Assembly (NCBI RefSeq): GCF_000010065.1
Contig: NC_006576.1
Coordinates: 1,920,001-1,952,000, forward strand
Reading direction: 5' to 3'
Origin: Synechococcus elongatus PCC 6301
GTDB taxonomy: Bacteria > Cyanobacteriota > Cyanobacteriia > Synechococcales > Synechococcaceae
DNA: 32,000 nt
How positions within the stretch are numbered: the first letter of the stretch is position 1; every line of letters starts with the position of its first letter. The notes below the pieces were generated by a model. That model was given only the letters and a program-made list of their open reading frames with translations. It did no database searches and was not told the DNA's origin. The translations under genes were made by a program, and so were the position numbers. Of this stretch, positions 6,386 to 23,713 are shown one piece after another.

Positions 6386-6907
6386 CTAGAAGTAAACGTC
6401 AACTTTAGAACGGCCAGTTGTTTTCAGCCAGTTCTGAGCCTCGATGTAGTTGTTGGGCGCGAGGCGAATCGCTTGGGTCCAATATTCTGCCGCTTGATCG
6501 TAGTGGCGTTCGGCTTCATCATCGTTGCCTGCTTCCTCCGATCGCTGACCGAGGAAGTGGTGAATCACCGCAATATTGTTGAGTGCCTGCGGCATTTTCG
6601 GATTCAGATCCAAGGCCTGCAGGTAATGATCCAGCGCCGTTTGGTGATCACCGTTGCTGGTGTGTACCAGTGCAATGTTGTAGAGGATGAAGCTGCGATC
6701 GATCGGATCTTCTTCCAGCGTCAGCGCCTCTTGATAGTTCTCCAGCGCTTCGGCGTATTCGCCATCGGCCTGCGCCGACATACCATCGCGATAGTAGGCA
6801 AACGCTTCCTTAGACTTCTTGTTGGTCGGCAACACCTTGAGAATCAGGTCTGCCATCACCGTAAAAGACTTGTCGATGAAGTTGTCGTTGCGCTGTGTTC
6901 TCGGCAT
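6386..6907 (-). CDS. ycf3: Photosystem I assembly protein Ycf3 (TPR)
   Basis: 173 aa. [27 protein letters not shown]... is followed by three TPR units, matching the highly conserved Ycf3 sequence. Confidence 0.95.
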
Positions 6908-6944
6908 GGTGCCTGGGTCATCGAAGACTTACTCAGTGTAGTCT

Positions 6945-7232
6945 TCAACTCCAATCATCCTGATCCTTGTTACGGCCTTGATATATGCCGCCACGTTGAT
7001 GGATTTCTCGGGTGCGTTCAAACAGGCTAGCTTCATCCAACTGCCAGCGCTGCAGGGCCTTCTCCAAATCTCGCTGGATATCCCGCGCACCGGGAAAGCC
7101 TTGATAGCGAATTTTGAGGCGAGCCAGCTCGCAAAGGTTGAAGTCCGTCGCTTCACCCACCAGCAGGCTATCGACCGTGGTGCGATCCGATCGCCAGAGG
7201 GGATGTTCTTGATCTTTGGCCGTGTCGCTCAT
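6945..7232 (-). CDS. Conserved cyanobacterial hypothetical protein (resembles DUF3288 family, from memory)
   Basis: The 95-aa ORF has host-like codon usage and contains HIP1-type CGATCG cores. No catalytic motif was recognised. Confidence 0.65.
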   Translation of the reverse strand: MSDTAKDQEHPLWRSDRTTVDSLLVGEATDFNLCELARLKIRYQGFPGARDIQRDLEKALQRWQLDEASLFERTREIHQRGGIYQGRNKDQDDWS

Positions 7233-7320
7233 GGTGGGGAATCAGGACAAGGGCATCAGTCTGCATTGTCGAACAGCTCGTGCGATCGCCCTAAAAGAAC
7301 CCGCGATCAGATAGTGGTAC

Positions 7321-7619
7321 TTAAGCTTCGACCAGCTTTTTCACTTGCAACTCGTCTCTGCGTTGCTCTGCCTGCCCAAGCTCATACTGAGATTGCTGAT
7401 TCATCCAGCTCTCTGCCGAGGTGTCAAAGGTAATGGAGAGTCGAGTCGAATTGCCATTTCAGGGCTAATTCCTGCATGACCATTCAAAATGGCACTCAGC
7501 GTTTTCCGACTGACACCGAGCGCTGCAGCTGCTTCAGTGATCGAGATGCCCAACGGTTCAAGACATAGCTCTTTGATAATCTCTCCAGGATGCGGAGGAT
7601 TGTGCATCAGCATAGTCAT
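7321..7619 (-). pseudogene. higA: HigA-family (XRE HTH) antitoxin gene, frameshifted by a 5-bp tandem duplication; no cognate toxin gene adjacent
   Basis: ORF 7401..7619 encodes [59 protein letters not shown] and then runs into nonsense. The plus strand carries AGTCG|AGTCG at 7439..7448. Removing one unit restores ...[42 protein letters not shown] (stop at 7321..7323), a full 97-aa HigA-like protein. Confidence 0.7.
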
Positions 7620-8451: not shown

Positions 8452-10824
8452 ATGCCTGCTGCGATCGTCCATTCCGCTGATCCTTCATCCACATCAATTC
8501 TGGTGGAAGTGGAAGGGATGAAATGTGCAGGCTGTGTCGCAGCAGTGGAACGCCGCTTGCAACAGACCGCAGGTGTGGAAGCGGTCAGCGTCAATTTAAT
8601 TACGCGCCTTGCCAAAGTTGATTACGATGCGGCACTGATTGAGGACCCAACTGTCCTAACAACGGAAATCACCGGCTTGGGCTTTCGGGCGCAGTTGCGG
8701 CAGGACGACAATCCGCTGACGCTGCCGATCGCTGAGATCCCACCCCTGCAACAGCAGCGCTTACAACTGGCGATCGCGGCTTTTCTCCTGATTGTTTCCA
8801 GTTGGGGGCACCTGGGGCACTGGCTCGACCATCCCTTGCCGGGCACCGATCAGCTGTGGTTTCACGCGTTGCTGGCGATTTGGGCCTTGCTAGGGCCGGG
8901 ACGCAGCATTTTGCAAGCGGGCTGGCAGGGCTTGCGCTGTGGCGCACCGAATATGAATAGCTTGGTGCTGCTGGGCACCGGTAGTGCTTATCTGGCAAGT
9001 TTGGTGGCGTTGCTCTGGCCGCAGCTAGGCTGGGTCTGTTTTCTTGATGAGCCCGTGATGTTGCTGGGCTTCATTTTGCTGGGGCGAACCTTGGAGGAGC
9101 AGGCACGTTTCCGCAGTCAGGCTGCTTTGCAAAACCTTTTGGCTTTGCAACCAGAAACGACGCAGTTGCTGACAGCACCCAGCTCGATCGCTCCCCAAGA
9201 TCTCCTCGAAGCACCGGCTCAGATTTGGCCGGTCGCCCAATTGCGGGCGGGTGACTACGTCCAGGTGCTGCCCGGCGTTCGCATTCCGGTGGATGGTTGC
9301 ATCGTTGCAGGCCAGAGCACTTTGGATACAGCGATGCTGACGGGAGAACCACTACCGCAACCTTGTCAGGTGGGCGATCGCGTCTGCGCAGGGACGCTGA
9401 ACCTCAGCCACCGCTTGGTGATTCGGGCCGAACAAACTGGTAGTCAAACTCGACTGGCGGCAATCGTGCGGTGTGTGGCGGAGGCACAGCAACGGAAAGC
9501 CCCAGTCCAGCGGTTTGCGGATGCGATCGCGGGTCGCTTCGTCTACGGCGTTTGTGCGATCGCGGCGCTGACCTTTGGCTTTTGGGCAACGCTGGGCAGC
9601 CGCTGGTGGCCGCAGGTTCTGCAGCAGCCTTTACCGGGTCTGCTAATCCACGCGCCCCATCACGGCATGGAAATGGCGCACCCCCACAGTCATTCACCGC
9701 TGCTGCTGGCGCTGACCTTGGCGATTAGTGTGTTGGTCGTAGCTTGTCCTTGTGCCCTAGGTTTAGCCACGCCGACGGCCATCCTCGTCGCAACAGGACT
9801 TGCCGCTGAACAGGGCATCTTGGTGCGCGGTGGTGATGTGCTAGAACAGTTGGCGCGAATTAAGCACTTTGTCTTCGATAAAACTGGAACCCTGACCCAA
9901 GGTCAATTTGAGCTGATCGAGATTCAACCCCTAGCGGATGTGGATCCCGATCGCCTCCTGCAATGGGCCGCTGCCTTAGAAGCTGATAGTCGACATCCTC
10001 TGGCGACCGCCCTACAAACAGCAGCTCAGGCAGCGAATCTGGCACCGATCGCAGCCAGCGATCGCCAGCAAGTGCCGGGTTTGGGCGTCAGCGGGACTTG
10101 TGACGGGCGATCACTGCGTCTGGGCAATCCCACTTGGGTACAAGTCGCTACAGCCAAGTTACCGACTGGTTCTGCTGCTGCAACATCAATCTGGCTGGCT
10201 GATGATCAGCAACTCCTGGCCTGCTTCTGGCTGCAAGATCAACCGCGCCCCGAAGCGGCAGAAGTTGTCCAAGCCCTGCGATCGCGGGGGGCAACCGTGC
10301 AAATCCTTAGTGGCGATCGCCAAACAACAGCCGTGGCCCTCGCTCAGCAGCTTGGACTTGAATCGGAGACTGTAGTTGCAGAAGTGCTGCCCGAAGATAA
10401 AGCGGCGGCGATTGCTGCTCTCCAATCACAAGGCGATGCTGTGGCCATGATCGGTGATGGCATTAATGACGCACCCGCCCTTGCGACTGCCGCAGTCGGG
10501 ATCAGTCTGGCCGCCGGCAGCGACATTGCCCAAGACAGTGCGGGCTTACTGCTCAGCCGCGATCGCCTTGATAGCGTTCTGGTGGCTTGGAATTTGAGCC
10601 AAATGGGACTGCGGACGATTCGCCAAAACCTAACTTGGGCGCTGGGCTACAACGTGGTGATGTTGCCTTTGGCAGCGGGTGCCTTCTTGCCGGCCTACGG
10701 TCTAGCACTGACCCCCGCGATCGCCGGGGCTTGTATGGCTGTCAGTTCCCTCGCCGTTGTTAGTAATTCGCTATTGCTGCGCTACTGGTTCCGGCGATCG
10801 CTCAACCATTCAGTTTCTGTCTGA
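8452..10824 (+). CDS. ctaA: Copper-translocating P1B-type ATPase
   Basis: 790 aa. It has an N-terminal metal-binding GMKCAGC, the transmembrane CPC motif (VACPCALGLATP), the phosphorylation site FDKTGTLT and the hinge GDGINDAP. The symbol ctaA (versus pacS) is assigned from memory of S. elongatus and is tentative. Confidence 0.9.
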   Translation: MPAAIVHSADPSSTSILVEVEGMKCAGCVAAVERRLQQTAGVEAVSVNLITRLAKVDYDAALIEDPTVLTTEITGLGFRAQLRQDDNPLTLPIAEIPPLQQQRLQLAIAAFLLIVSSWGHLGHWLDHPLPGTDQLWFHALLAIWALLGPGRSILQAGWQGLRCGAPNMNSLVLLGTGSAYLASLVALLWPQLGWVCFLDEPVMLLGFILLGRTLEEQARFRSQAALQNLLALQPETTQLLTAPSSIAPQDLLEAPAQIWPVAQLRAGDYVQVLPGVRIPVDGCIVAGQSTLDTAMLTGEPLPQPCQVGDRVCAGTLNLSHRLVIRAEQTGSQTRLAAIVRCVAEAQQRKAPVQRFADAIAGRFVYGVCAIAALTFGFWATLGSRWWPQVLQQPLPGLLIHAPHHGMEMAHPHSHSPLLLALTLAISVLVVACPCALGLATPTAILVATGLAAEQGILVRGGDVLEQLARIKHFVFDKTGTLTQGQFELIEIQPLADVDPDRLLQWAAALEADSRHPLATALQTAAQAANLAPIAASDRQQVPGLGVSGTCDGRSLRLGNPTWVQVATAKLPTGSAAATSIWLADDQQLLACFWLQDQPRPEAAEVVQALRSRGATVQILSGDRQTTAVALAQQLGLESETVVAEVLPEDKAAAIAALQSQGDAVAMIGDGINDAPALATAAVGISLAAGSDIAQDSAGLLLSRDRLDSVLVAWNLSQMGLRTIRQNLTWALGYNVVMLPLAAGAFLPAYGLALTPAIAGACMAVSSLAVVSNSLLLRYWFRRSLNHSVSV

Positions 10825-17780: not shown

Positions 17781-19250
17781 TTGAATTCTTCTGCGCCTTT
17801 GCCGGAAACGGCTTTTTTGCGCCCGGATGGGAGTAACCGCGAGGCGATCGCGGCTGTAGCTCAGTTGGCGCTTGAGCAGTTACTCAATCTCGGTAGCCAG
17901 GCGGATCAGCGATCGCCCGTCCCCACTTGGCAAGGAAGCGAGCGACACGTCGGAATTCCGGCGCAGTCTGTGCCCTTGCCGGACCTACTGCAGCAACTGG
18001 AGCCGCTGCTGGCGCAAGCGATGAATCCAGCCAATCCGGGCTATCTCGGCCACATGGATCCGGTGGCGAGCACTGCGTCAGTCATTGGTGATGCGATCGC
18101 AGCACTTCTCAACAACAATTTGCTCAGCGTCGAGATGTCGCCCAGCTTCTCGCGCTTGGAAACGGCTGTCCTGCGAGAGTTAGCGCAACGGTTTGGGCTG
18201 GGGGACGAGGCTGGAGGATTGCTGCTGAGCGGCGGCAGTCTCGCCAATCTTCAAGCGATCGCCCTGGCACGCAATTGGGCCTTGCAGGTACAGGAAACTG
18301 GCCTGGCCGGACTAACTCAGAGACCAATTCTGTTTGCCTCTGAAGCTGCCCATACTTCGATTCAGAAAGCGGCGATGCTGCTGGGGCTAGGGAGCCAAGC
18401 CGTGATTCCAATCGCAACCGATCGCCGAGGTCGGATGCAAGTTGCCGCCCTCACAGAAGCGATCGCCTCGGCCCGCCGCCAAGGTCAGCGTCCATTTTGT
18501 TTGGTCGCAACTGCAGGCACCACCGTCACTGGCAGCATTGATCCACTCCCAGAACTGAGCGCGATCGCCCGTACTGAAGGGCTGTGGTTCCACGTTGATG
18601 CCTCCTATGGCGGAGCTGTGATCTTTTCGCCGCGCTATGCCCATAAGCTCCAGGGCATTGAGCAGGCTAATTCCGTTACCTTCAATCCGCAGAAGTGGCT
18701 CTGTGTTGCTAAAACGAGCGCTTCGTTACTGCTGCGCGACTGGTCGTTACTGACCGAGCACTTCCGCATTGCTGCGCCCTATATGGGTGAAGCTGACGAC
18801 CTGATCAACCTTGGTGAAGTCTCTGTCCAAGGCACTCGACCGGCAGACATTCTCAAGCTCTGGTTGACGCTCCAACACTTCGGCGATCGCGGTTGTGCTG
18901 CGCTGGTGGAACATGGCCTACGACTGTGCCGCTGCTTTGTTGCAGAATTGCGCCAACGCCCCCAGATTCAAGTGGCGACCCCGCCCGATTTGAATATCCT
19001 CTGTTTCCGTTTGGCGAGCGATCGCCTGACTGCGGAGCTGCAGCAATTTCTCCTCGATCGGTACTTCTTCTTGTCACTGCCAAGATTCCGCGATCGCCTC
19101 TGGCTGAAGGCGGTGCTGGTCAACCCGTTTACGACGCCCGAACACATCCGCCAACTCTTTGGAGCGATCGATGCTTTTTGTCGCGATCGCCAGATCCAGC
19201 CGGATCCCCAAAGTCAAGACAACGAGATCACTTACTCACAGTCGTTATGA
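17781..19250 (+). CDS. PLP-dependent group II decarboxylase (aromatic-amino-acid / diaminobutyrate decarboxylase-like)
   Basis: 489 aa with a fold-type I pattern: SGGSLANLQA, HVDASYGGA, and the Lys-containing motif SVTFNPQKW. The track start is a TTG, so the true start is uncertain. Confidence 0.85.
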   Translation: MNSSAPLPETAFLRPDGSNREAIAAVAQLALEQLLNLGSQADQRSPVPTWQGSERHVGIPAQSVPLPDLLQQLEPLLAQAMNPANPGYLGHMDPVASTASVIGDAIAALLNNNLLSVEMSPSFSRLETAVLRELAQRFGLGDEAGGLLLSGGSLANLQAIALARNWALQVQETGLAGLTQRPILFASEAAHTSIQKAAMLLGLGSQAVIPIATDRRGRMQVAALTEAIASARRQGQRPFCLVATAGTTVTGSIDPLPELSAIARTEGLWFHVDASYGGAVIFSPRYAHKLQGIEQANSVTFNPQKWLCVAKTSASLLLRDWSLLTEHFRIAAPYMGEADDLINLGEVSVQGTRPADILKLWLTLQHFGDRGCAALVEHGLRLCRCFVAELRQRPQIQVATPPDLNILCFRLASDRLTAELQQFLLDRYFFLSLPRFRDRLWLKAVLVNPFTTPEHIRQLFGAIDAFCRDRQIQPDPQSQDNEITYSQSL

Positions 19251-19324
19251 GTATGATATAAATGTTTACAGAGGTACTCAGCGATGCGAGTGCCCGTTGA
19301 TATTTACCCGGAGCCGTGAGACTC

Positions 19325-19921: not shown

Positions 19922-19972
19922 GCGCTGTAATCGACGTTCTTTACTTCAATCTCTGAACTAAGGCAAGTGTAT

Positions 19973-19999
19973 GGAGCTCAAGTGACTTGGGCTCCTTTT
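19973..19999 (+). terminator. Rho-independent terminator after peroxiredoxin gene
   Basis: GGAGCTCAAG-TGA-CTTGGGCTCC (one G-U pair) followed by TTTTCTG. Confidence 0.6.
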
Positions 20000-20044
20000 C
20001 TGTTAGATGGAAAGACCGATACTGGCTGTGATCGCGGGCTGAGA

Positions 20045-21163
20045 TTAACGGAACTGGCTGCCACGGTAGAAGGGGCGCTTGACGACTGTGGCGGGCACCT
20101 GTTTGCCCCGAATTTCGACCCAGAGTTCCTGCCCAAGATTGGCCAAGGCGGGAGGGACGTAGGCAAGGGCGATCGCTTTGCTGAGGGTGGGCGACCAACT
20201 GCCACTGGTAACAATTCCGACCGTGGTATCAGCGATCGCAACAGGATAGCCATGTCGGGCAATATTCCGGCCAGGCAGCTCGAGGCCGACCAAGCGACGT
20301 TCGAGACCGTTGGTTTTCGCTTGCACAAGGCGATCGCGCCCGAGGAAGTCAGGATTCCGGTCGAGATGAACTACCCAGCCCAATCCAGCTTCGAGAGGAT
20401 TGGTGTCAGTGTCCAGCTCATGACCGTAGAGCGGCATAGCGGCTTCCAGCCGCAGCGTATCGCGAGCCCCCAGTCCACAGGGCACAACCCCAGCGGCGGT
20501 CAGCTGTTGCCAGAGAGTGATCGCGGCTGCGGGCGGCAGCATCACCTCGCAGCCATCTTCGCCCGTGTAGCCGGTGCGGGCAACAAAGGCCGGTTGACCA
20601 GCGATCGAAGTCACCGTGTGGCTAAAGCGCGGCAGTTCTGCCAGATCGCAACTGACAAGAGGCTGAAGGAAAGCGATCGCTTGGGGACCTTGAATCGCAA
20701 CTAACGCCAAGTCTTGACTGAGATCTAGGAGGGCGATTGCGGGCGGTAAATGCTCTGTCAGCCAGAGGCGATCGCTGTCAGTCGTCGCAGCGTTGACAAT
20801 CAAAAACGCCTGTTCGACACCATCGACAATTCCCTGCCAGTAGACAATCAGGTCATCAAGGCAGCCTCCTGCTTCATTCAAAAGCACTGAGTATTGAGCC
20901 TGCCCCGGCAACAGAGTCGTCAAATCACTGGGCAGCAGACGTTGCAAAGCCGCCCGAAGGCCGGAGCCGCGCAACTGAAACTTGCCCATGTGGGAAATAT
21001 CAAATAGCCCTGCTCGCTCACGAACAGCGAGATGCTCTTGCATGAGCCCTTGAAACTGCAGGGGTAACTCCCAGCCTGCAAACCCCGTGAACCGAGCTCC
21101 CGCTGAAGTGCACACTGAATGCAGAGGGGAAGACAAGAGAGAAACGGTCACAGTCAGAGTCAC
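20045..21163 (-). CDS. gcvT: Aminomethyltransferase, glycine cleavage system T protein
   Basis: 372 aa with FDISHMGKF, GYTGEDGCEV and the C-terminal KRPFY motif. The GTG start at 21163 is uncertain by a few codons. Confidence 0.92.
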   Translation of the reverse strand: MTLTVTVSLLSSPLHSVCTSAGARFTGFAGWELPLQFQGLMQEHLAVRERAGLFDISHMGKFQLRGSGLRAALQRLLPSDLTTLLPGQAQYSVLLNEAGGCLDDLIVYWQGIVDGVEQAFLIVNAATTDSDRLWLTEHLPPAIALLDLSQDLALVAIQGPQAIAFLQPLVSCDLAELPRFSHTVTSIAGQPAFVARTGYTGEDGCEVMLPPAAAITLWQQLTAAGVVPCGLGARDTLRLEAAMPLYGHELDTDTNPLEAGLGWVVHLDRNPDFLGRDRLVQAKTNGLERRLVGLELPGRNIARHGYPVAIADTTVGIVTSGSWSPTLSKAIALAYVPPALANLGQELWVEIRGKQVPATVVKRPFYRGSQFR

Positions 21164-21292
21164 AAACCAGAACTATCCCAATTGTGCGTCAAAACTTCGA
21201 TAAATTAGTGAATAAATTTGATGCTTAATTAATGGCTTTGAGAGAAAAACTACTTATTTTATCTTTGCAGGATGGATGTTCAGGTTACATTA

Positions 21293-22303
21293 CTAACCAC
21301 AATCTCTTTGAAGTTGTTCTAGTCGTTCAATTAAAGCCAGATATCGCTTTTGAGATTTAGGCTTATCGATCAAGTAAGAATGAACGTCTTGCAAATACTC
21401 AATAAAACTTTCAGGTGTACAAGGCTGACTCTGATATCGCAGCGTATGCCAGCGATGATAGCTATTATGAATTTCCTCTTTAACAACCAGAATATTGTCT
21501 ATTTTAGTAGCTAAGTCACTCCGGCTAGACTTGCAGAAAATATGATGGCCATGCAAATCAAATTGAGATCCCTCTCCGCATACCTCTCCAGTGACTTGAC
21601 AGCGATTACGAGCTAAACGCTTTGCATTTAAGATAGCCTGCGTAATTGCTTGTTCCTGTGACATCAATAGTTTGTACTGATAGTCAACACCATCAATAAT
21701 AGTGTCACCAACAGCCTCTAGCCAAGATTGTCTTGACTTGTTTTTATTTGATTTTTTCATGTCTTTAGATAGCTTTAGAATACCAGTATTACTAAAGTAT
21801 TCATCGGATTCAATATATGCTATATCTTTATTTGCTATTAAGATTTCAGCGCCTTCATAACCCCCTCCACCTTTTTTAATTCTGTCCATTGCACCATTAA
21901 TCCCTTTGCCATTGGTTCCAAGAATAGAAATAGCACTTCTACGATGAAAAAATAAGGTGTCTGACACTACTGCTGTTGACCCTGATCTTGTTTCTTGGGC
22001 AATTTTGCGCAGAACTAAAGCTCTTCGGATACGTTGCTGACGATGAGTAAAAAATTCAATTAGGCGGTTGAGGATGCCGTTGCCTTCTGTGACTTCTAGG
22101 TATTTGGCTATCGCAACAGCACCTTGCTCATAGAAATGTCGAATTTTTCCACGAGTAATCCATTCAAAATGCTCGCCTTCGTTAAGCTCCCATTCATCAT
22201 CTAGATTCGCATCAAACTTTTGACAAACCTTATAGAGTTTTGATTTGCTGATCTTTAGTGCAACTGCAGTCTCGTCATCTGTTAGCAAAGTGTATTGAGC
22301 CAT
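21293..22303 (-). CDS. Hypothetical protein with HTH-like N-terminus and C-terminal HNH (beta-beta-alpha-Me) nuclease motif
   Basis: The 336-aa ORF lies in an AT-rich segment. The C-terminal CQVTGEVCGEGSQFDLHGHHIFCKSSRSDLATKIDNILVVKEEIHNSYHRWH (aa 235-286, nt 21446..21601) fits the HNH pattern. The N-terminal LTDDETAVALKISKSKLYKVCQ looks like a small HTH. A GGGAGA Shine-Dalgarno lies 7 nt upstream of the ATG. Confidence 0.8.
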   Translation of the reverse strand: MAQYTLLTDDETAVALKISKSKLYKVCQKFDANLDDEWELNEGEHFEWITRGKIRHFYEQGAVAIAKYLEVTEGNGILNRLIEFFTHRQQRIRRALVLRKIAQETRSGSTAVVSDTLFFHRRSAISILGTNGKGINGAMDRIKKGGGGYEGAEILIANKDIAYIESDEYFSNTGILKLSKDMKKSNKNKSRQSWLEAVGDTIIDGVDYQYKLLMSQEQAITQAILNAKRLARNRCQVTGEVCGEGSQFDLHGHHIFCKSSRSDLATKIDNILVVKEEIHNSYHRWHTLRYQSQPCTPESFIEYLQDVHSYLIDKPKSQKRYLALIERLEQLQRDCG

Positions 22304-22306
22304 AAC

Positions 22307-22885
22307 TTATCTCCCAAACAACAAGGAATCGCGCATTTGCTGAAGTTTTGAAAAAACTTCTGGATTACCCCCAGCATCTGGGTGATGCTCTTTAGCTAGT
22401 TGTCGAAAAGCGCTTTTGATATCTTCCACAGTTGCTTTTTTAGGATCTAAGCCAAAGACAATCCAAGGTCGAAAGTTTTTGAGGACATCAATGCCATTGA
22501 TGCAGTTGGGTCCCACTTCATTTCGTTCATCAGGTGGTACTGCTACCCATGCGCGATAGAGTTCGAGCCAAGGCTGCTTGAGCCTTAAGTCGTAGTCTCG
22601 ACCTTCGATCGCAACTTGAAAGCCTTCTGATTTTTTGAGTTGGGTAACAGTTGAACAGTTAAATGCTTGGCAAACGCCTGCTTTCAACTGGGCTAGGCTC
22701 AAGGGTTTGACTTTAGTGACTGGTGGCTGTTTCCCAGTGCTACTCTTCCCGCGAGAAGAGACCTTTTGCGATCGCGAAAACTGGGCAAATTCTAGGAAAA
22801 CCTGTCGATCAATCCCGTAGCGATCGGCCAATTCTGTAGCGCGATCGATGACAGATTGTGGCAGCGCAGTCGATTTTGAAGCCAT
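22307..22885 (-). CDS. J-domain (DnaJ-like) protein with the J domain at the extreme C-terminus
   Basis: The C-terminal FGLDPKKATVEDIKSAFRQLAKEHHPDAGGNPEVFSKLQQMRDSLL (nt 22310..22456) has the HPD tripeptide. The N-terminal ~145 aa are unrecognised. The start is taken as ATG 22885 (MASKS...), but ATG 22894 or TTG 22912 are possible. The stop lies 3 nt before the downstream ATG. Confidence 0.75.
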   Translation of the reverse strand: MASKSTALPQSVIDRATELADRYGIDRQVFLEFAQFSRSQKVSSRGKSSTGKQPPVTKVKPLSLAQLKAGVCQAFNCSTVTQLKKSEGFQVAIEGRDYDLRLKQPWLELYRAWVAVPPDERNEVGPNCINGIDVLKNFRPWIVFGLDPKKATVEDIKSAFRQLAKEHHPDAGGNPEVFSKLQQMRDSLLFGR

Positions 22886-23026
22886 GCAGACCATGCCCAA
22901 AGAGAGCCGCAAGCTTCTACAGCTTATGGGGCTTTGCTCCTAGGTCAGCGACTTCTTAAATAGAAGTTCATGTTTTGCGTCACTGCGGAGTGCTATTCAG
23001 CCTAATGAGAGGTCGATCGCTAAAAC

Positions 23027-23713
23027 TTAGCTTTCGCGTAGGACATAACCGACGCCGCGCACCGTTTGCACAAGCCGTTTTTCGCCTTCGATCTCAATCT
23101 TGAGGCGCAAGTAGCGAATGTAGACCTCAATTACATTCGACTCGCCCATAAAGTCATAACCCCAGACATTCTCAAGAATTTGCTCTCGCGTCAGCACTTC
23201 GCGCGGATGCTCCATCAAAAAACGCAGAAGATCAAATTCCTTCATGGTTAGGTCGATTTGACGACCATTACGAGCAGCACGCCGCGTGGAAAGGTCGAGG
23301 GTTAAGTTGCTGAATTGCAGATGTTCTTGAGCAGCAGGTTCTCGTTGTAAATAGAGCTGGAGTCGCCGTAAAAACTCATCGCTGCGGTAAGGCTTTAGTA
23401 AATAATCATCAGCCCCTGCTTCGAGACAGGCAACGCGGTCTTCAACGGTATCACGACCCATCAATAACAGAATCGGAATGGTTAAGCCGCGATCGCGCAG
23501 CTGTCGGCAGAATTGCAGACCTGATTGGCCGCCCGCCATGCGATCGACGATGACTAAATCAGGCTTCTGAAGATCGATTTGTGCAAATAAATCCTGCTGA
23601 ACATTGGCGAGAGAGGTTCCATAACCGGCCTGGAGTAAGTCGCCTGCCATTTGTTGAGCCAAGCTGGAATCTGACTCGATCAATAAAATGTGTGGCGAGG
23701 CTGGCGCGATCAT
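23027..23713 (-). CDS. OmpR-family two-component response regulator (receiver + winged helix)
   Basis: 228 aa with a receiver domain (ILLIESD, DLVIVD, LLKP) and a C-terminal trans_reg_C pattern (LTxKEFDLLRFLMEHP...VQTVRGVGYVLR). Confidence 0.93.
   Translation of the reverse strand: MIAPASPHILLIESDSSLAQQMAGDLLQAGYGTSLANVQQDLFAQIDLQKPDLVIVDRMAGGQSGLQFCRQLRDRGLTIPILLLMGRDTVEDRVACLEAGADDYLLKPYRSDEFLRRLQLYLQREPAAQEHLQFSNLTLDLSTRRAARNGRQIDLTMKEFDLLRFLMEHPREVLTREQILENVWGYDFMGESNVIEVYIRYLRLKIEIEGEKRLVQTVRGVGYVLRES

Follow-up and report, generated by a model that had tools for sequence, protein, structure and literature searches.

What are two AT-rich genes, one for a J-domain protein and one for a putative nuclease, doing between gcvT and a response-regulator gene of Synechococcus elongatus, and how did they come to lie there? 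The two genes occupy positions 21164-22912 of the window studied here, that is, the whole stretch of 32,000 nucleotides (nt) taken from S. elongatus PCC 6301 (NC_006576.1, positions 1,920,001 to 1,952,000). An earlier note, made from the letters of the sequence, had described them as a horizontally acquired cassette, either a remnant of a phage or mobile element or a chaperone-linked nuclease system of the defence or addiction type. The analysis reported here gives good support to an operon that is obligate, mobile, specific to cyanobacteria and under purifying selection, with old alleles kept at one site. New with respect to the earlier note are the strict pairing of the two genes across the phylum, the ancient allelic polymorphism, and the existence of relatives of the J protein in phage head modules. 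The function that we tentatively assign to the pair is discussed in the last section.

Pairing and organization of the two genes

The association of the two genes was assessed by two scans that started from opposite members of the pair. A pattern-based scan for the nuclease, with one genome per species, gave 37 loci spanning Prochlorococcus, marine and freshwater Synechococcus and Cyanobium, Leptolyngbya, Nodosilinea, Phormidium, Microcystaceae and others, and wherever upstream sequence was available, the gene immediately before that of the nuclease was the J gene. Conversely, a metagenome scan for the J gene yielded 80 loci, and the nuclease gene was directly downstream in all of the 75 that had enough downstream sequence. 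The two genes therefore always co-occur elsewhere, a point on which the earlier note had made its proposal depend. Furthermore, the pairwise identities of the J protein and of the nuclease are correlated (r = 0.95). No conserved third gene was found: among the 147 nearest neighbours and the 187 Pfam families recorded there, none appeared more than three times. An obligate operon specific to cyanobacteria is thus well supported.

Two metagenome-assembled genomes (MAGs) titled Sphingobacterium (thalpophilum, L032) and Chitinophaga (pinensis, L042) were discounted as evidence for a wider distribution. These titles look wrong because the G+C content of 0.61-0.67 does not fit them and because the neighbours of the L042 pair are 90% identical to those of a Prochlorococcaceae MAG (L049).

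Some loci showed peculiarities of their own. In a Cyanobium/Vulcanococcus group (L026, positions 6523-7395; also L027 and L029), 15 nt separate the end of a gene for an HNH + HIT fusion protein from the J gene; the former may be a third component peculiar to this lineage or an adjacent defence gene. Two loci about 9.7 kb apart on a 15-kb Cyanobium contig (CAZBMT010000018.1; L034 and L035) gave identical J and nuclease profile scores, which reflects either duplication of the pair or an error in the assembly.

In the window, the interval 21164-22912 contains two co-oriented genes on the minus strand, separated by 3 nt. The genes, spacers and junction of the cassette, together with its flanks, are as follows.

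20045-21163: gcvT (Synpcc7942_2308, identified from published fitness tables)
21164..21292: spacer between the nuclease gene and gcvT, 31% G+C, belonging to the swapped allelic island described below
21293..22303, minus strand: gene for the predicted helix-turn-helix (HTH)-HNH nuclease, Synpcc7942_2307, 336 amino acids (aa), from the open reading frame (ORF) and an exact database match
22304..22315, minus strand: operon junction, read from the sequence, with GGGAGA at 22310-22315 in the last J codons and TAA at 22307-22309
22307..22894, minus strand: gene for the J-domain protein, Synpcc7942_2306, 195 aa from the annotated ATG, from the ORF list and an exact database match
22895..23026: spacer between the response-regulator gene and the J gene, presumed promoter region of the operon and second boundary of the allelic island
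23027-23713: winged-helix response-regulator gene, the other flank of the cassette

This arrangement agrees with what the earlier note had read from the sequence, namely a co-oriented ORF pair with a 3-nt gap, a GGGAGA motif inside the end of the upstream gene, and a location between gcvT and a response regulator. The remainder of the junction consists of the spacer GTT (22304-22306) and the nuclease ATG (22301-22303), so that the whole reads GGGAGA TAA GTT ATG, which supports the proposed translational linkage of the two genes. In eight other loci, the annotated spacing from the J gene to its partner is 2-27 nt. The start of the J gene may be the annotated ATG at 22894, an ATG at 22885 of the type found in orthologues (MASKS...), or, for the longest ORF, a TTG at 22912. 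Both products have exact matches in the databases, where they are named 'Heat shock protein DnaJ-like' (ABB58336.1) and 'hypothetical protein' (ABB58337.1). A promoter scan placed no promoter-like site in the spacer 22895..23026, and a search of the surroundings of the cassette for flanking direct or inverted repeats, terminators, promoters and Rfam RNAs returned nothing above chance.

The two predicted proteins and the phage relatives of one

The J protein consists of a variable N-terminus, a conserved central domain and a minimal J domain at the C-terminus. The two conserved parts are encoded as follows.

22310..22465, minus strand: minimal J domain, helices I-III; the protein terminates soon after helix III
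22484..22708, minus strand: conserved central domain, ...WL.LYREWVGVP.NER..GP.CINGIDVLKNFRPW, common to the J proteins of phage head modules

The earlier claim that the upstream product ends in a J domain with the motif HHPDAGG was confirmed by Pfam DnaJ (PF00226), which matched above its threshold (29.4 bits against a cut-off of 27.8, E = 8.6e-7) and covered model positions 9-46 of 63. A family profile built from 35 sequences matched solved J domains at E = 2e-8 to 1e-5, including those of DNAJC5 (E = 2.1e-8), E. coli DnaJ (E = 2.3e-6) and CbpA. The HPD triplet within HHPDAGG is encoded at 22376-22384; it is present in 35/35 locus-derived J homologues, and all three residues (H171, P172 and D173) are invariant in the alignment of 35 sequences. 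About 22 residues follow HPD, and helix IV is apparently missing. The only known activity of J domains is the loading of clients onto Hsp70.

The J protein has 68 homologous clusters. In the central domain, the invariant columns are Y113, R114, P120, E123, N133, G134, D136 and N140-W144. The family profile found no relatives of solved structure for the parts of the protein outside the J domain. In two homologues, from Leptolyngbya sp. FACHB-16 and a relative (P0019 and P0020), the first part of the central domain is internally duplicated, with two copies of the unit ELE.AVAA.F.C...ELKK...F...I.GRDLN.

Relatives of the J protein also occur in phages. The protein matched phrog_9210, a family listed as of 'unknown function', at E = 6.5e-9, and viral relatives share 45-50% identity over residues 46-191, that is, over the central and J domains (E = 1e-38 to 1e-40). 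Such genes were found on about 19 IMG/VR contigs (L140-L158) and on several phage-like metagenome contigs (L054-L059). They lie in head-morphogenesis modules, with portal genes upstream and genes for giant portal/minor-head-like or Mu-F-like proteins downstream, and some of the encoded proteins have Cys-rich N-termini. The phage proteins resemble the window J protein in having a homologous central domain as well as the J domain but, unlike the cellular genes, theirs are never trailed by an HTH-HNH gene (0/78 viral loci). From these comparisons, the J half of the pair appears to be common to phages, and the nuclease half to be cellular only. The role of a J protein at this position of a phage head module is itself undescribed. 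We also considered, and rejected, the idea that the nuclease derives from a phage HNH packaging module: terminase or portal genes adjoin the pair in none of the cellular loci, and the nuclease is absent from INPHARED and IMG/VR. Hence the pair is not part of a characterised prophage structural or packaging module, an origin that would have spoken against the proposal of the earlier note.

The nuclease belongs to a family of moderate size, for which an exhaustive profile search retrieved 445 clusters at 50% identity with E <= 1e-3, and 82 with E <= 1e-30. A full-length AlphaFold2 model, computed from a 13-sequence alignment, reached a mean predicted local distance difference test (pLDDT) score of 89. 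The parts distinguished in the protein are listed below.

22079..22303, minus strand: N-terminal domain, aa 1-75, weakly resembling MerR/excisionase winged helices, with the invariant motif DEWEL.EGEHF
21740..21982, minus strand: most variable middle region, aa 108-188, beta-hairpin/helix units in the model
21608-21739, minus strand: long helix, aa 189-232, in the predicted model
21428..21607, minus strand: predicted HNH (beta-beta-alpha-metal) core, aa 233-292, with C235, H253, H254, N270, H279 and H283
21296-21427, minus strand: C-terminal helices with C295, after the HNH core

The statement of the earlier note that the downstream product ends in an HNH motif was borne out both by conservation and by modelling. 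The protein contains an HNH-type motif, LHGHH...DN...H..YH, and C235, H253, H254, N270, H279, H283 and C295 are invariant in 35/35 homologues, including a distant subfamily, at a mean identity of only 38%; the catalytic residues, whose absence the note had named as a possible outcome, are thus present on alignment. In the model, a strand (250-254) ends in H253-H254, a second strand (271-275) starts after N270, and a helix (276-289) bears H279 and H283, a predicted strand-strand-helix layout that is the one of the beta-beta-alpha-metal fold. The spacing of the His-His...Asn...His-x3-His residues (16, 9, 4) is probably similar to that of the DNase motif of colicins E7 and E9.

Because a fold search against the PDB with the full-length model was swamped by artefacts from the long helix, the C-terminal 115 residues (222-336) were modelled separately (pLDDT 93). 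With this model, about 45 of the top 50 Foldseek matches in the PDB were HNH domains, among them those of Cas9, CBASS Cap5, McrA, TagI, PtuB and T5 SciA; the best E value was 0.038, and no match attained E <= 0.001. Models of phage HNH proteins (BFVD) aligned with a probability of 1.0 and a root-mean-square deviation of 2.2-2.6 Å over about 90 columns. At the sequence level, searches of the nuclease against Pfam, NCBIfam, PHROGs and PADLOC gave nothing significant, and its profiles (full-length and C-terminal) produced only chance matches to PDB sequences. No fusion of a J domain with HNH was found in the longer members of the nuclease family. As a whole, these data are consistent with an HNH fold in which the predicted catalytic and metal-binding set is complete.

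Residues 1-75 resemble MerR/excisionase winged helices weakly. Foldseek gave local matches to BldC, RacA, Tn916 Xis, SoxR and BmrR, with probabilities of 0.38-0.77 and E values around 1. Pfam HTH_17 scored 13.3 bits on the window nuclease against a cut-off of 27, and matched 3/13 family members at E >= 0.015 (0.015-0.1). This domain is the most conserved part of the nuclease, with a mean identity of 78% among six S. elongatus-type alleles. The middle region averages 60% among the same alleles, as opposed to 72-78% at the ends, and shows the highest proportion of nonsynonymous differences (pN, 0.33-0.38 in sliding windows).

Mobility of the cassette and exchange of its alleles

The composition of the cassette sets it apart from its surroundings, as the earlier note had gathered from a few hand-counted lines, and a likeness to the flanks, which would have counted against the note, was not observed. 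In the sliding-window scan, the interval 21164-22912 had a G+C content of 0.411, against 0.567 ± 0.017 for 1750-nt windows elsewhere in the window (z = -9.1), and it was the sole G+C island of this kind in the 32 kb. On a finer scale, 300-nt windows over 21050-22400 ranged from 0.34 to 0.43, and the flanks from 0.50 to 0.63. The G+C content at third codon positions is 0.30 in the nuclease gene and 0.43 in the J gene, compared with 0.51-0.63 in six neighbouring genes. The octamer HIP1 (GCGATCGC) occurs 100 times in the window against 1.27 expected, and the 2000-bp gap from 20768 to 22768 is the largest of the 99 gaps between copies (the runner-up measures 1300 bp). The claim that the cassette is free of HIP1 holds for the stretch between these two positions but not for the whole, because the site at 22768 falls inside the 5' part of the J gene, where the G+C content is host-like (0.52); the cassette is better called HIP1-poor.

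Two compositional details concern other parts of the window. The only other 500-nt stretch below 47% G+C (2251-2750, 0.45) overlaps an ORF of 157 aa (2259-2732). Long ORFs antisense to, or overlapping, gcvT and a decarboxylase gene (19967-20704 and 18893-19261, both on the plus strand, and similar ones) are most likely artefacts of high G+C content rather than genes.

That the module moves horizontally, as the earlier note had supposed, is supported by its distribution. A set of 39 loci occupies at least 31 genomic contexts, and in 38/39 the G+C content of the cassette is below that of its host. Several of the loci belong to integrative or replicative elements. The pair is accompanied by an integrase and VapE in one locus and by DUF3854/Toprim and a helicase in another. 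In Prochlorococcus it lies beside Prim-Pol, AAA_25 and T5orf172 genes, or beside a D5-type primase, a weak integrase match and tRNA-Arg. Adjacency to tRNA genes is absent at most loci; two Prochlorococcus loci (L038 and L040) have tRNA genes nearby. Neighbours of toxin or defence type include Tox-PL-2, patatin, HepT/MNT, PIN, a type IV restriction enzyme and IetS.

In all the decayed copies of the pair that were seen, the damaged gene is that of the nuclease, and the J gene is still detectable. In Altericista sp. CCNU0014 (CP137338.1; L013/L037), a DDE_Tnp_1 insertion sequence splits the nuclease gene into pieces that encode residues 3-47 before the insertion and 42-337 after it, and the J gene is intact. 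The nuclease gene of a Nodosilinea has an in-frame stop past the HNH core, and that of a Merismopediaceae MAG has frameshifts. One further locus (L011) contains a fragment of a second J gene (9370-9522, profile positions 72-122) about 300 nt downstream of the pair, and a 70-aa fragment of an N6_N4 methyltransferase (6764-6976) upstream of it; these fragments look like traces of earlier rearrangements.

Within S. elongatus, the pair was found at the same gcvT/response-regulator junction in a second chromosome (CP033061.1; L004) and in a more distant relative (L001). The site is therefore occupied in all three lineages of the S. elongatus clade that were examined, and an empty site was seen in none. 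A comparison of the window with CP033061.1 (dS being the number of synonymous substitutions per synonymous site) gave the following values.

Flanking genes: nt identity 97-100%, aa identity 98-100%, dS 0.007-0.056
J gene: nt identity 77-90%, aa identity 89%, dS 0.67
Nuclease gene: nt identity 58-80%, aa identity 63%, dS about 2.5 (saturated)

The ratio of nonsynonymous to synonymous rates (dN/dS) was 0.07-0.11 for both genes. The divergent block has sharp boundaries, at about 23020, where the identity drops from 99% to 31%, and at about 21140. The spacer 21164-21292 is 34-46% identical to that of CP033061.1, the flanks of which are 97-100% identical. At the 5' end of gcvT (21043-21142), the identity to CP033061.1 is 91%, compared with 97-100% deeper in the gene, showing that the recombination tract of the swapped allele extends into the first ~100 nt of gcvT. 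A recombination breakpoint lies at or near the J/nuclease junction.

In L001 the flanks are only 80-90% identical to those of the window, and yet its nuclease allele is the closer one (79% aa identity, against 63% for CP033061.1). At least six nuclease allele types, 63-79% identical, are represented in the databases; for three of them the genomic site is not confirmed. This incongruence between the divergence of flanks and alleles points to old allelic lineages exchanged by recombination, and it also speaks for horizontal movement. With synonymous sites that are saturated and a dN/dS of about 0.1, we rejected rapid evolution in situ as an explanation of alleles that are 63% identical.

These sequence comparisons argue for purifying selection on both genes, at a site that appears to be fixed and where alleles have been swapped. 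Two suggestions of the earlier note are consequently not supported. The cassette does not seem to have been wedged in recently, given that all three lineages are occupied at the same site: it is the allele that moves, and not the presence of the cassette. Nor does it look like a remnant, in view of the dN/dS of 0.07-0.11 and of genes that are intact across the phylum. The retention of old alleles at one site is a pattern typical of genes under frequency-dependent conflict.

A possible nuclease conflict module and its rivals

What, then, might the pair do? We favour, tentatively and stopping short of calling it probable, a conflict module for defence or addiction in which a nuclease is gated by DnaK. 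This reading is based on the client-loading function of J domains, the effector-like nature of the nuclease, the pattern of its mobility and alleles, the bias of decay towards the nuclease gene, and a precedent in the cooperation of DnaJ with bNACHT25 (see below). With type II toxin-antitoxin systems the cassette shares the layout of a small, mobile, tightly spaced two-gene operon found in many contexts. The first product would be a dedicated Hsp70 co-chaperone and the second a DNA-binding nuclease, the effector, with the J protein coupling the nuclease to the DnaK cycle of the host. The J protein might pass the nuclease to DnaK, by which it would be held, or remodelled between inactive and active states; alternatively, its phage-related central domain might respond to head-assembly proteins of phages or to a lack of available DnaK. 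Once an infecting phage or the loss of the element upset the DnaK cycle, the nuclease would be let loose on DNA. A contact between the J protein and the nuclease, the dependence on DnaK, the nuclease activity and its target, and a phenotype of defence or toxicity are all features that we infer for such a module.

Several known systems share single aspects of this scheme. In toxin-antitoxin-chaperone (TAC) modules, such as Mycobacterium HigBA with its SecB-like chaperone, a chaperone component controls a toxic effector encoded by the same small mobile operon. TAC modules differ from the pair in having three genes, a chaperone of the SecB type, a toxin of the RNase type and a labile antitoxin, whereas the cassette has two genes, a J co-chaperone that would act via the host DnaK, and no recognisable antitoxin. 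The E. coli cbpA-cbpM operon likewise consists of two genes, for a J-domain protein and its specific partner, and has a link to DNA binding; however, the J domain of CbpA is N-terminal, CbpA itself binds DNA, CbpM is a small inhibitor, and the two form a chromosomal housekeeping pair. As for the nuclease, McrA/TagI, Cap5, PtuB of retrons and Septu, the Cas9 HNH domain and phage HNH proteins have the same beta-beta-alpha-metal fold as that predicted here, with equivalent His-His...Asn...His-x3-His residues. None of them has a J protein as its partner, they offer no counterpart to the first two-thirds of the window nuclease, and the cassette lacks the methyltransferase, cyclase or ATPase partners of those systems.

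A closer functional parallel may be bNACHT25, a nuclease-armed, NLR-related anti-phage protein of E. coli that requires the host DnaJ to sense a phage coat protein (PMC12169576). It is similar in being a DNA-degrading defence effector dependent on a J-domain co-chaperone, that is, a guard-type link between Hsp70 and a nuclease, but its DnaJ is a housekeeping protein not encoded in the operon, it is built on a NACHT ATPase core, and it is unrelated in sequence to either cassette protein. A J domain is also found in predicted conflict operons, namely the GAP1-N2 GTPase/HSP70 systems with DnaJ-fused FNIII proteins (Kaur et al. 2020, PMC7159879). These are multi-gene systems of actinobacteria and firmicutes with their own HSP70, GrpE and GTPase, and without an HNH partner (PMC7159879).

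A number of observations weigh against a conflict module. Random barcode transposon-site sequencing (RB-TnSeq) libraries of PCC 7942 contain viable insertions in both genes, and in three screens neither gene exceeded the |T| > 4 threshold adopted by the authors:

Conjugal transfer (PMC10653904): 2306, -0.76 (T = -2.2); 2307, +0.83 (T = 1.65)
RSF1010 maintenance (PMC10653904): 2306, -0.51 (T = -1.56); 2307, -0.61 (T = -1.0)
UV tolerance, three fitness values (PMC9659335): 2306, 0.24, 0.34 and 0.07; 2307, -0.21, 0.07 and 0.07

The lack of an effect on conjugation or RSF1010 implies that the nuclease poses no detectable obstacle to plasmid DNA. The viable insertions in the J gene likewise do not suggest in any obvious way that its product is an essential antitoxin, but such insertions may have polar effects on the nuclease gene downstream. 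At many loci the neighbours are ordinary housekeeping genes, and the nuclease and the pair were not found in plasmid collections or in the phage collections INPHARED and IMG/VR. The contrast in dS between the J gene (0.67) and the nuclease gene (2.5), which comes from a single pair of close strains, implies different allele histories and thus argues against the two proteins being closely matched allele by allele. The window nuclease does not reach the threshold of any Pfam HNH family; among 13 family members, the best matches were HNH_2 at E = 0.19 and HNH at E = 3, and phrog_144 gave E = 0.13. At the sequence level the link to HNH is indirect, by way of family member P0210, which with 22.2 bits passes the HNH_2 cut-off of 21, whereas P0106 scores 20.0. 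Finally, no system model of PADLOC-DB 2.0.0 matches either protein. The sole stray match there was PglZ for the nuclease (E = 0.0016), with none for the J protein, and the pair is not a catalogued defence system. Literature searches by locus tag, for J-domain with HNH and defence, for tycheposon with DnaJ, and for the accession CP033061 retrieved no description of the pair either, which upholds the remark of the earlier note that no system of a J protein with an HNH nuclease had been described.

In supplementary file 2 of the UV study (PMC9659335), the table jumps from Synpcc7942_2301 to 2306, leaving the response regulator beside the cassette without a fitness value; the genes in this interval may be essential or free of insertions.

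The phage relatives of the J protein bring to mind a more specific form of immunity, in which the sensor of a sensor-effector system would be a captured phage co-chaperone. The central domain would recognise intermediates of phage head or portal assembly, or the protein and its phage counterpart would compete for DnaK. The J domain, in turn, would drive DnaK to activate a latent HTH-HNH protein, or would free it when DnaK is diverted. The old S. elongatus alleles would then reflect an arms race with cyanophages. We rate this version as unlikely. Somewhat more improbable, in our opinion, is a selfish cassette of the homing type, with the nuclease as a free-standing, site-specific homing or nicking endonuclease and the J protein aiding its folding, turnover or release from DNA. 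An HNH domain joined to a sequence-reading winged helix does resemble the free-standing homing enzymes of phages (BFVD probability 1.0), the two genes stand alone amid conserved genes, sharply bounded and without repeats at their borders, the many contexts (at least 31) and low G+C content would be expected, and a nuclease gene that now and then decays is in keeping with a homing life cycle. Yet the three S. elongatus-clade lineages include no empty site and vary in the allele instead, and their alleles are old and under purifying selection (dN/dS ~0.1), unlike homing genes, which decay after fixation. Moreover, known homing systems contain nothing equivalent to the obligate J partner (75/75), and the pair is missing from the phage and IMG/VR collections, where homing-type genes abound.

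The fixed chromosomal site in the S. elongatus lineages and the strong purifying selection could also be explained by a domesticated host function, such as a DNA-binding regulator or a repair or processing nuclease whose oligomeric state is remodelled by the J protein and DnaK. DnaJ and DnaK remodel P1 RepA in this manner, and CbpA/CbpM provides a second model. Such a function would agree with the DNA-binding N-terminal domain being the most conserved part, with the modelled long helix, which suggests oligomerisation, and with mutants that are viable without a stress phenotype, as for a conditional accessory function. It is hard to reconcile with a patchy spread (37 species-level genomes scattered over the phylum), with variable contexts, some of them on integrative elements, with the persistently low G+C content, with the existence of pseudogenised copies, and with alleles incongruent with their flanks, and we give it little credence. 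As to the possibility that the pair is an inert leftover of a prophage or mobile element and no longer has a function, which was already disfavoured above, it would account for the AT-rich, HIP1-poor composition, for the close phage relatives of the J half and for three transposon screens without a phenotype. However, the reading frames are intact with a dN/dS of 0.07-0.11, HPD and the catalytic residues are unchanged in 35/35 homologues, the pairing is strict across the phylum, and no other phage genes adjoin the cassette in S. elongatus, all of which makes this explanation very improbable.

Irrespective of the mechanism, small nuclease conflict operons are common, and none has been described with a dedicated J-domain co-chaperone. 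Host chaperones have only lately been implicated in phage sensing (bNACHT25 with DnaJ, PMC12169576). If the sensor of the pair were indeed a captured phage co-chaperone, no earlier defence system would have had a J-domain component of its own, and the pair would offer a direct, genetically tractable case of chaperone guarding. If the function turned out to be a housekeeping one, the pair would still include a new J protein specific to one defined client, the nuclease. Since the pair resides in PCC 7942, which is among the cyanobacteria easiest to engineer, the hypothesis is directly testable. Phage defence in Prochlorococcus and other picocyanobacteria shapes global primary production, and few such systems have been characterised. 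In the swapping of alleles at this one fixed site, nature offers a clear instance of balancing or frequency-dependent variation, which could be tied to phage host range.

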